The notes under the pieces were generated by a model. The model was given only the letters and a program-made list of their open reading frames with translations. It was not told the origin of the DNA and did not search any database. This document shows, in pieces, positions 38,245 through 38,270 of a stretch of 64,000 bases of DNA. Every line of letters starts with the position of its first letter. Position 1 is the first letter of the stretch. The stretch is from Escherichia coli 042 (lineage in GTDB: Bacteria > Pseudomonadota > Gammaproteobacteria > Enterobacterales > Enterobacteriaceae): NCBI RefSeq assembly GCF_000027125.1, contig NC_017626.1; one strand, written 5' to 3'. The translations under genes and the position numbers were made by a program.

Positions 38245-38270
38245 ATGCCCGTCAAGGATTTGACGGGCAT
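38245..38270. other. Perfect 11-bp stem hairpin/palindrome between yaiT and yaiV
   Basis: atgcccgtcaa ggat ttgacgggcat; no T-tract follows. Confidence 0.6.

Follow-up and report, generated by a model that had tools for sequence, protein, structure and literature searches.

A conserved, single-copy stem-loop at the ehaB–iprA junction of Escherichia coli and related genera

Introduction

Stem-loops at or near the 5' end of a transcript are known as mRNA stabilisers in E. coli, examples being the hairpin in the 5' untranslated region of ompA and the 5' stem-loop of papA, which arises from processing of papBA. In this study, we analysed a palindrome in a contiguous 64-kb stretch of the E. coli 042 chromosome, referred to below as the window. 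Like the ompA and papA elements, it is a stable, GC-rich hairpin on the coding strand, located few nucleotides upstream of a ribosome-binding site and conserved in structure, and it leaves the Shine-Dalgarno sequence unsequestered. It differs from both in that the 5' end of the transcript, with at most about two to four unpaired nucleotides ahead of the stem, is a predicted one, and in that the outer stem sequence is more conserved than simple protection would require.

The palindrome lies between two genes on the + strand, which were called yaiT and yaiV in an earlier note on this DNA and are named ehaB and iprA in current annotation. The upstream gene ehaB (35298..38204) encodes an intact autotransporter adhesin of 968 aa. 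In K-12, the same gene is the IS3-interrupted pseudogene yaiT, and K-12 transcription data across the junction may therefore not represent this strain. The downstream gene iprA is annotated as hydrogen peroxide resistance inhibitor, its product being a CRP-like protein with a C-terminal HTH_46 winged helix (Pfam PF15977). IprA is a poorly understood regulator. Citing papers describe, for Salmonella, a large gain in oxidative-stress resistance and altered fimbrial gene expression upon IprA loss. A PDB sequence search with IprA returned only stretches of phycobilisome linkers and a weak match to a FadR-family HTH, and hence no informative relative.

Results

The palindrome at 38245-38270 reads ATGCCCGTCAA-GGAT-TTGACGGGCAT, in agreement with the earlier note, whose 11-bp stem proved to be real and at the same time understated: an inverted-repeat search gave arms of 13 nt with 100% complementarity, TAATGCCCGTCAA at 38243-38255 and TTGACGGGCATTA at 38260-38272, set 4 nt apart. 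The full stem-loop spans 38243..38272 on the + strand, with six G-C pairs among its 13 bp and the loop GGAT at 38256-38259; the part of the stem conserved across genera is the 11-bp core at 38245-38270. The distance of 40 nt between the ehaB stop codon (ending at 38204) and 38245 was likewise as described before, as was the missing T-run after the stem, where the next 8 nt hold two T. For the 26-mer, a hairpin energy of -17.6 kcal/mol was calculated, and the 126-nt stretch around the palindrome folds with z-scores of -4.7 on the + strand and -4.6 on the - strand compared to shuffles.

Within the 64-kb window the palindrome is the sole match to its sequence, even if three mismatches are allowed, while none of 100 shuffles contained a match. 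Only four perfect hairpin-type repeats of at least 11 nt are present in the whole window, and a covariance-model search of it yielded no further copies of the hairpin. A dispersed repeat of the REP/BIME type could be ruled out, the median being one place per E. coli genome. No Rfam family reached its gathering threshold over the hairpin, the best scores being 23.4 bits (gathering 49) and 17.4 bits (gathering 100) at E-values of 2-5, and the palindrome is not mentioned in the literature searched. The hairpin is hereby confirmed as a real, conserved, single-copy stem-loop at the ehaB-iprA junction. Leader or terminator-type RNA hairpins are well known as elements, and the present one adds a further case, absent from Rfam; the gain is accordingly local to this locus and not conceptual.

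The assignment of the iprA start codon bears directly on the nature of the palindrome. The ATG at 38245 does open an ORF of 222 aa in frame with the ATG at 38290, and both had been put forward as candidate yaiV starts. For 38245 this was not borne out, with RefSeq, the protein equivalog, the orthologues and the Shine-Dalgarno sequence all pointing to 38290. RefSeq annotates iprA at 38290..38913 on the + strand (207 aa plus stop), and the equivalent of 38290 is used in this strain, in K-12 HMS174 and in MG1655 (NP_414909.2, 394,506-395,129). The NCBIfam IprA equivalog NF008810, comprising 207 positions, covers residues 16-222 of the 222-aa ORF with E = 5e-138. The Shine-Dalgarno sequence AAGGA at 38278..38282 (+ strand) sits between the 11-bp stem and the ATG at 38290, 7 nt from each, and the surrounding block TTGCAAGGAA is kept in orthologues; no Shine-Dalgarno sequence precedes 38245, an ATG buried in the stem. 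In 27 orthologous or paralogous loci the palindrome ATG resides 42-48 nt before the real start and is mostly out of frame with it, being in frame only where the distance divides by three. It is furthermore replaced by AAG in C. gillenii and by TTG in the C. farmeri paralogue. On the basis of these comparisons we consider it settled that iprA starts at 38290, which leaves the 38245 ATG as no more than stem sequence and makes the palindrome a non-coding element between ehaB and iprA. A small upstream ORF beginning at the 38245 ATG was also ruled out, given the lack of a Shine-Dalgarno sequence, the frame varying by genus and the AAG of C. gillenii.

Among 5387 E. coli genomes carrying the region, the 30-mer of the stem-loop was found as an exact 28-mer or better in 5371, once per genome and rarely twice, and it is never annotated. 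Over 321 nt around the palindrome, the sequence is 100% identical to that of strain FDAARGOS_497. The 30-mer at 38273-38302, comprising Shine-Dalgarno sequence and start codon, is exact in 5350 E. coli genomes, and the adjacent upstream 30-mer at 38205-38234 matches only 536 of about 5390. Judged by these counts, the hairpin is under strong purifying selection within E. coli.

For comparison across genera, loci were gathered by an IprA genome scan and from contigs encoding more distant homologues. The hairpin precedes iprA in Escherichia (coli, albertii, fergusonii, whittamii) and Salmonella (enterica subspecies and bongori), and also in many Citrobacter, Raoultella, Yokenella, Trabulsiella and Kluyvera. 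Unlike the hairpin itself, the preceding part of the spacer diverges among genera. It is missing in Enterobacter cloacae, Leclercia and one further lineage, in agreement with the covariance model, and these lineages feature a canonical GC-rich hairpin with a T-run directly after the autotransporter stop codon. Built from the alignment, the same model recovered a held-out C. arsenatis paralogue with E = 3e-4. A metagenome scan with the pattern ATGCCCHNCAN6TGNDGGGCAT gave 120 matches, none of which lies beside an IprA homologue, and yielded no new orthologues; many of the matches are generic terminators consisting of A-run, hairpin and T-run, the shape of the outer stem being a common one.

We additionally observed a second pair of autotransporter and iprA-like genes at another chromosomal site in some Citrobacter genomes, with the hairpin present in C. 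farmeri (2458-2483 of locus L030) and C. arsenatis (about 2453-2476 of locus L036). Since every such pair is accompanied by a version of the hairpin at unchanged spacing, autotransporter, iprA-like gene and hairpin were apparently duplicated together.

The position of the hairpin is fixed relative to the downstream gene, at 42-48 nt (mostly 45 nt) from the iprA ATG and with 6-8 nt between stem end and Shine-Dalgarno sequence in all but one locus, and the upstream stop codon lies anywhere from 24 to 47 nt away. In Kluyvera, the autotransporter is absent and the upstream gene is hemB in divergent orientation. A 9-bp version of the hairpin with three G·U pairs is nonetheless found 42 nt before the iprA ATG. 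This arrangement is suggestive of a hairpin tied to iprA rather than to ehaB; the case is not decisive, because the Kluyvera copy is weaker (-10.7 kcal/mol) and its fold z-score is not significant.

Conservation extends to the pairing itself. In the 27-sequence alignment 96.3% of the cells are paired and four of the 11 pairs are changed on both sides, values for pairing and covariation that were reached by none of 500 shuffles and by none of the slid registers. For the whole ehaB-iprA spacer, RNAalifold gave a consensus structure consisting of this helix alone. Six stem positions have undergone symmetric double changes, in different lineages. In C. rodentium pair 7 is altered from G-C to A-U, and in C. 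gillenii pair 2 from U-A to A-U, with C. sp. Res13 resembling a one-sided intermediate of the latter change. Yokenella shows three changed pairs in a still perfect palindrome, ATGCCCACCAT-GACT-ATGGTGGGCAT, in Trabulsiella the inner pair is flipped, and the paralogues of C. farmeri and C. arsenatis display a flipped pair 1 and changes at pairs 4 and 7, respectively. The loop varies freely between GGAT, GGAC, GGAG, GAAA, GAAT, GCAT, GCAA and GACT. From this pattern of substitution the pairing, besides the sequence, is demonstrably under selection. The outer ATGCCC/GGGCAT is almost invariant, one paralogue having ATGTCC/GGACAT, which leaves room for a sequence-specific recognition that goes beyond pairing.

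One-sided changes inside the stem allow the two strands to be distinguished. Six were found, one each in C. amalonaticus S646, C. amalonaticus ku-bf3 and Trabulsiella and three in Kluyvera, and all six lead to G·U on the + strand and to A·C on the - strand (p = 0.016 among transitions). This asymmetry falls to six of eight (p = 0.14) once two opposite changes of the loop-closing pair are counted. In four lineages the - strand hairpin is weaker by 4-6 kcal/mol, and it is never clearly stronger. The evidence, with modest statistics, favours a transcribed + strand RNA structure rather than a DNA binding site, and the hairpin is most probably functional as + strand RNA. Three functions had been suggested for the palindrome in the earlier note, namely an RNA stabiliser, a terminator of yaiT and a binding site for YaiV: the comparative data speak for an RNA structure over a YaiV site on DNA, and leave stabiliser and weak terminator unseparated.

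Upstream of the hairpin, a candidate iprA promoter was located at 38210..38239 on the + strand, with TTCACT (38210-38215) and TTTAAT (38232-38237) separated by a spacer of 16 nt. In K-12, TTCACT-18-TTTAAT is listed as a constitutive RpoD promoter with an H-NS mark in the yaiU-yaiV spacer, a spacer which was selected in vitro by the RNA polymerase RpoD holoenzyme (Shimada 2014, PMC3946193). The promoter spacer is therefore 16 nt long here versus 18 nt in K-12. With its predicted -10 element TTTAAT 7 nt ahead of the palindrome, this promoter would place the start of the iprA transcript at about 38241-38246 (394,457-394,462 of K-12 NC_000913.3), around 38244 from the hexamer positions, at the foot of the stem. 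Most loci share an AT-rich block, GGTwATTTAAyC, whose distance to the downstream hairpin is fixed. At this place, a simple consensus scan of E. coli K-12, Citrobacter, Salmonella, the C. farmeri paralogue and Yokenella gave no promoter call. Published 5' ends give no start at the hairpin either: the transcript starts of Kim 2012 comprise only weak ones inside ehaB, at 290 nt (4 reads) and 650 nt (2 reads) upstream, and the Cappable-seq data examined contain none in the interval.

ChIP-seq data place RNA polymerase precisely at this position. A sigma-70 peak is reported for K-12 at 393,682, with a signal of 82 under aerobic and 509 under anaerobic conditions (Myers 2013 Table S2, PMC3688515). 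This coordinate corresponds to about 38242 of the window, 3 bp before the first base of the palindrome at 393,685, where in the same coordinate system the long yaiV ORF starts (Kim 2012 supplement). RNA polymerase holoenzyme hence occupies the hairpin site in K-12, so that a conserved leader element would be placed exactly where the polymerase is seen in vivo.

The FNR box GTGACGTAGATCAA is located at 38152..38165 (+ strand) inside the 3' end of ehaB, 93 bp upstream of the palindrome and about 85-90 bp upstream of the predicted iprA start. Its published site at 393,590 (Myers 2013) maps to 38152-38165 given an indel of 2 nt, which cross-checks the coordinate conversion. The corresponding FNR ChIP-seq peak in K-12 lies at 393,651, and the expression change of yaiV in an hns stpA mutant was O2-dependent, with a fold change of 0.19 (Myers 2013, PMC3688515). 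Taken together, the FNR box, the six-fold anaerobic rise of sigma-70 and the O2 effect in the hns stpA background make iprA look FNR-activated and H-NS-silenced. With the published FNR box residing inside ehaB, an FNR site within the palindrome was ruled out. The same holds for TTGACG of the right arm as a -35 element, for which no usable -10 element is found downstream. A candidate cis-acting region of iprA is now defined by FNR box, AT-rich -10 block, hairpin and Shine-Dalgarno sequence.

The spacer ahead of the hairpin showed several features in its own right. At 38205-38234 it is polymorphic, K-12 having two extra bases (GAAGAAATACTGGTAATTT vs GAAGAAATAGGTTATTT). This insertion creates a TGn extended -10-like context, and the indel falls inside a CyuR motif predicted across 38219-38239, upstream of the hairpin (PMC11408624). 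Directly after the ehaB stop codon, a second, AU-rich stem-loop TTCTTCA-CTC-TGAAGAA is present at 38207..38223 on the + strand, where it overlaps the -35-like hexamer of the candidate promoter. Equivalent hairpins of other sequence were recognised by eye in Salmonella (TTTCTC-TCAG-GAGAAA), C. amalonaticus (CATTCCC-TAAC-GGGAATG) and Trabulsiella (CAGGAAG-CGTTTC-CTTCCTG), and Enterobacter and Leclercia have their canonical terminator at the position of this stem-loop.

Discussion

We tentatively favour, at slightly less than an even chance, a model in which the palindrome acts as a 5'-proximal + strand stem-loop of the iprA leader, serving as stabiliser or insulator. The hairpin exists, its pairing is conserved and its spacing to the start codon is fixed. 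In the proposed model, it would be transcribed on the + strand as an RNA stem-loop of the iprA transcription unit, filling the first approximately 30 nt, or at least the 5'-proximal part, of the leader and ending 7 nt before the Shine-Dalgarno sequence. A transcript beginning at the foot of the stem, as predicted from the promoter elements, would carry a stable 5' hairpin that could shield the iprA mRNA from 5'-end-dependent decay by RppH and RNase E. The hairpin would at the same time mark a boundary between ehaB read-through transcripts and the iprA message. The model would hold irrespective of whether the 5' end stems from a promoter just upstream or from a processed ehaB-iprA co-transcript. 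Besides the negative searches for a 5' end and a promoter at the hairpin, the modest strand asymmetry and the nearly invariant outer stem, two observations stand against it. Lineages without the hairpin carry a terminator instead, which equally fits a hairpin that is the local counterpart of this terminator, and the Kluyvera copy is weakened, as expected if constraint was relaxed after ehaB loss.

Both observations lead to the second reading, which we regard as rather unlikely: a leaky intrinsic terminator or attenuator of ehaB, at which RNA polymerase arriving from ehaB would pause or terminate, and which would also shield the 3' end of the ehaB message from exonucleases and limit read-through into iprA. 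In its GC-rich stem of 11-13 bp, its 4-nt loop, its location 40 nt downstream of a same-strand stop codon and its A-rich 5' and partly U-rich 3' flanks, the element resembles intrinsic terminators, and the conserved pairing of the + strand RNA would be expected for a terminator as well. Outside E. coli the tail is U-richer, 4-5 of its 8 nt being U in most Citrobacter, in Yokenella and in the C. farmeri paralogue. A canonical terminator occupies the same spacer in the lineages devoid of the hairpin, the metagenome scan showed ATGCCC...GGGCAT stems between A- and T-runs to be a common terminator shape, and the hairpin is degraded in Kluyvera, where ehaB is lacking. However, a U-tract is absent in E. 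coli (2 U in the 8 nt after the stem, compared to 2-5 in the orthologues), and a terminator scan made no + strand call in E. coli, Citrobacter, Salmonella, the C. farmeri paralogue or Yokenella. Unlike in intrinsic terminators, the distance to the next start is fixed and the element persists in Kluyvera, where no co-directional gene precedes it; the tight spacing to the downstream Shine-Dalgarno sequence and ATG, and not to the stop codon, is left unexplained by termination. In Salmonella, iprA is reportedly part of a two-gene operon, which would imply read-through and thereby argue against a terminator. The tables of Adams 2021 list no 3' end near yaiV, which is weak evidence because ehaB is an IS3-disrupted, H-NS-covered and silenced pseudogene in K-12.

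A DNA operator at the 26-bp palindrome, which would overlap the transcription start and at which a dimeric regulator and most obviously IprA itself would bind in an autoregulatory manner and block RNA polymerase, appears improbable. It is suggested by a perfect palindrome directly upstream of the gene for a CRP-like winged-helix protein and coinciding with the sigma-70 occupancy peak, and by the inner half-sites GTCAA-N4-TTGAC, which share the 5-N4-5 geometry of FNR-type sites. The nearly invariant outer ATGCCC/GGGCAT around four variable central base pairs is also reminiscent of many operators. As in CRP/FNR operators, the 5-N4-5 inner palindrome thus sits beside a CRP-like gene and overlaps a promoter. 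In contrast to these, the symmetric region is extended to 26 bp, its variation follows base-pairing including G·U, and the half-sites are inverted relative to the CRP/FNR consensus TTGAT-N4-ATCAA, leaving no match to TGTGA-N6-TCACA or to TTGAT-N4-ATCAA. The symmetric changes at six positions in palindromes that are still perfect are predicted by pairing and would not be by protein contacts, so that protein-DNA contacts are unlikely, barring a repeated change of protein specificity. The one-sided stem changes, all compatible with G·U on one strand, point in the same direction. Furthermore, no second operator copy is present in the 64-kb window, E. coli genomes have one copy each, the iprA homologues of Enterobacter and Leclercia are without such a palindrome, and the literature searched holds no binding data for it.

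We give a similarly small chance to a dedicated cis-regulatory switch at the ehaB-iprA junction, the sequence of which would be recognised by a factor, perhaps IprA, on RNA or DNA. With such a switch, the near constancy of the outer ATGCCC/GGGCAT at about 50% protein divergence would find an explanation. It would also link an adhesin gene, in its expression, to a regulator of oxidative-stress resistance, and the duplicated sets of autotransporter, iprA and hairpin in Citrobacter would then constitute a small mobile three-part module.

Still less probable is a translational repression of iprA by a dimer of CsrA, or of another RNA-binding protein, bridging the GGA of the loop (CAAGGAUUU) and the GGA of the Shine-Dalgarno sequence. 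The SELEX consensus of CsrA is RUACARGGAUGU, and the loop context CAAGGAU resembles it. A second GGA (CAAAGGA / GCAAGGAAUGC) overlaps the Shine-Dalgarno sequence 24 nt downstream of the first, so that E. coli displays, as in CsrA sites, a pair of A(N)GGA motifs spaced by 24 nt, one being in a hairpin loop and the other in a Shine-Dalgarno sequence. The loop GGA is kept in E. coli, E. albertii, most Citrobacter, Salmonella and Raoultella. It is lost, however, with the stem being kept, in E. fergusonii (GAAA), C. braakii (GCAT), the C. farmeri paralogue (GAAT), Trabulsiella (GCAA), Yokenella (GACT), Kluyvera and the C. arsenatis paralogue, and on account of these seven lineages the GGA cannot be the conserved function. 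In addition, yaiV was not found in those parts of the CsrA CLIP tables of Potts 2017 that were covered.

The leader stem-loop remains the reading we prefer, and what had been a vague intergenic palindrome is turned into a testable element, for which natural variants with compensated, G·U and loop-only changes are at hand.

Downstream, iprA and ampH are convergent, with stop codons abutting at 38913/38914; in Salmonella the gap is about 42-44 nt. Abutting stop codons leave no space for a terminator, and each transcript must consequently run antisense into the other gene unless it is stopped by Rho. Although this missing space, a - strand tail of 4-5 U in 8 nt in many species and a - strand terminator called by the scan in Salmonella salamae would fit a minus-strand terminator stopping antisense transcription from ampH through iprA, we consider it highly improbable, as the A·C mismatches of the - strand cost 4-6 kcal/mol in the four lineages with one-sided changes, the - strand tail is not U-rich in Yokenella, Trabulsiella, Kluyvera and C. 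amalonaticus S646, and an untranslated antisense RNA of 670 nt would normally be ended by Rho well before the hairpin.

Elsewhere in the window, we observed a perfect inverted repeat of 21 nt, ATATACTATAGGGGGGTATGC-N11-GCATACCCCCCTATAGTATAT, at 26364-26416, downstream of yaiO and ahead of frmR. It resembles the G-tract operators of the RcnR/FrmR family, and is probably the operator of FrmR.
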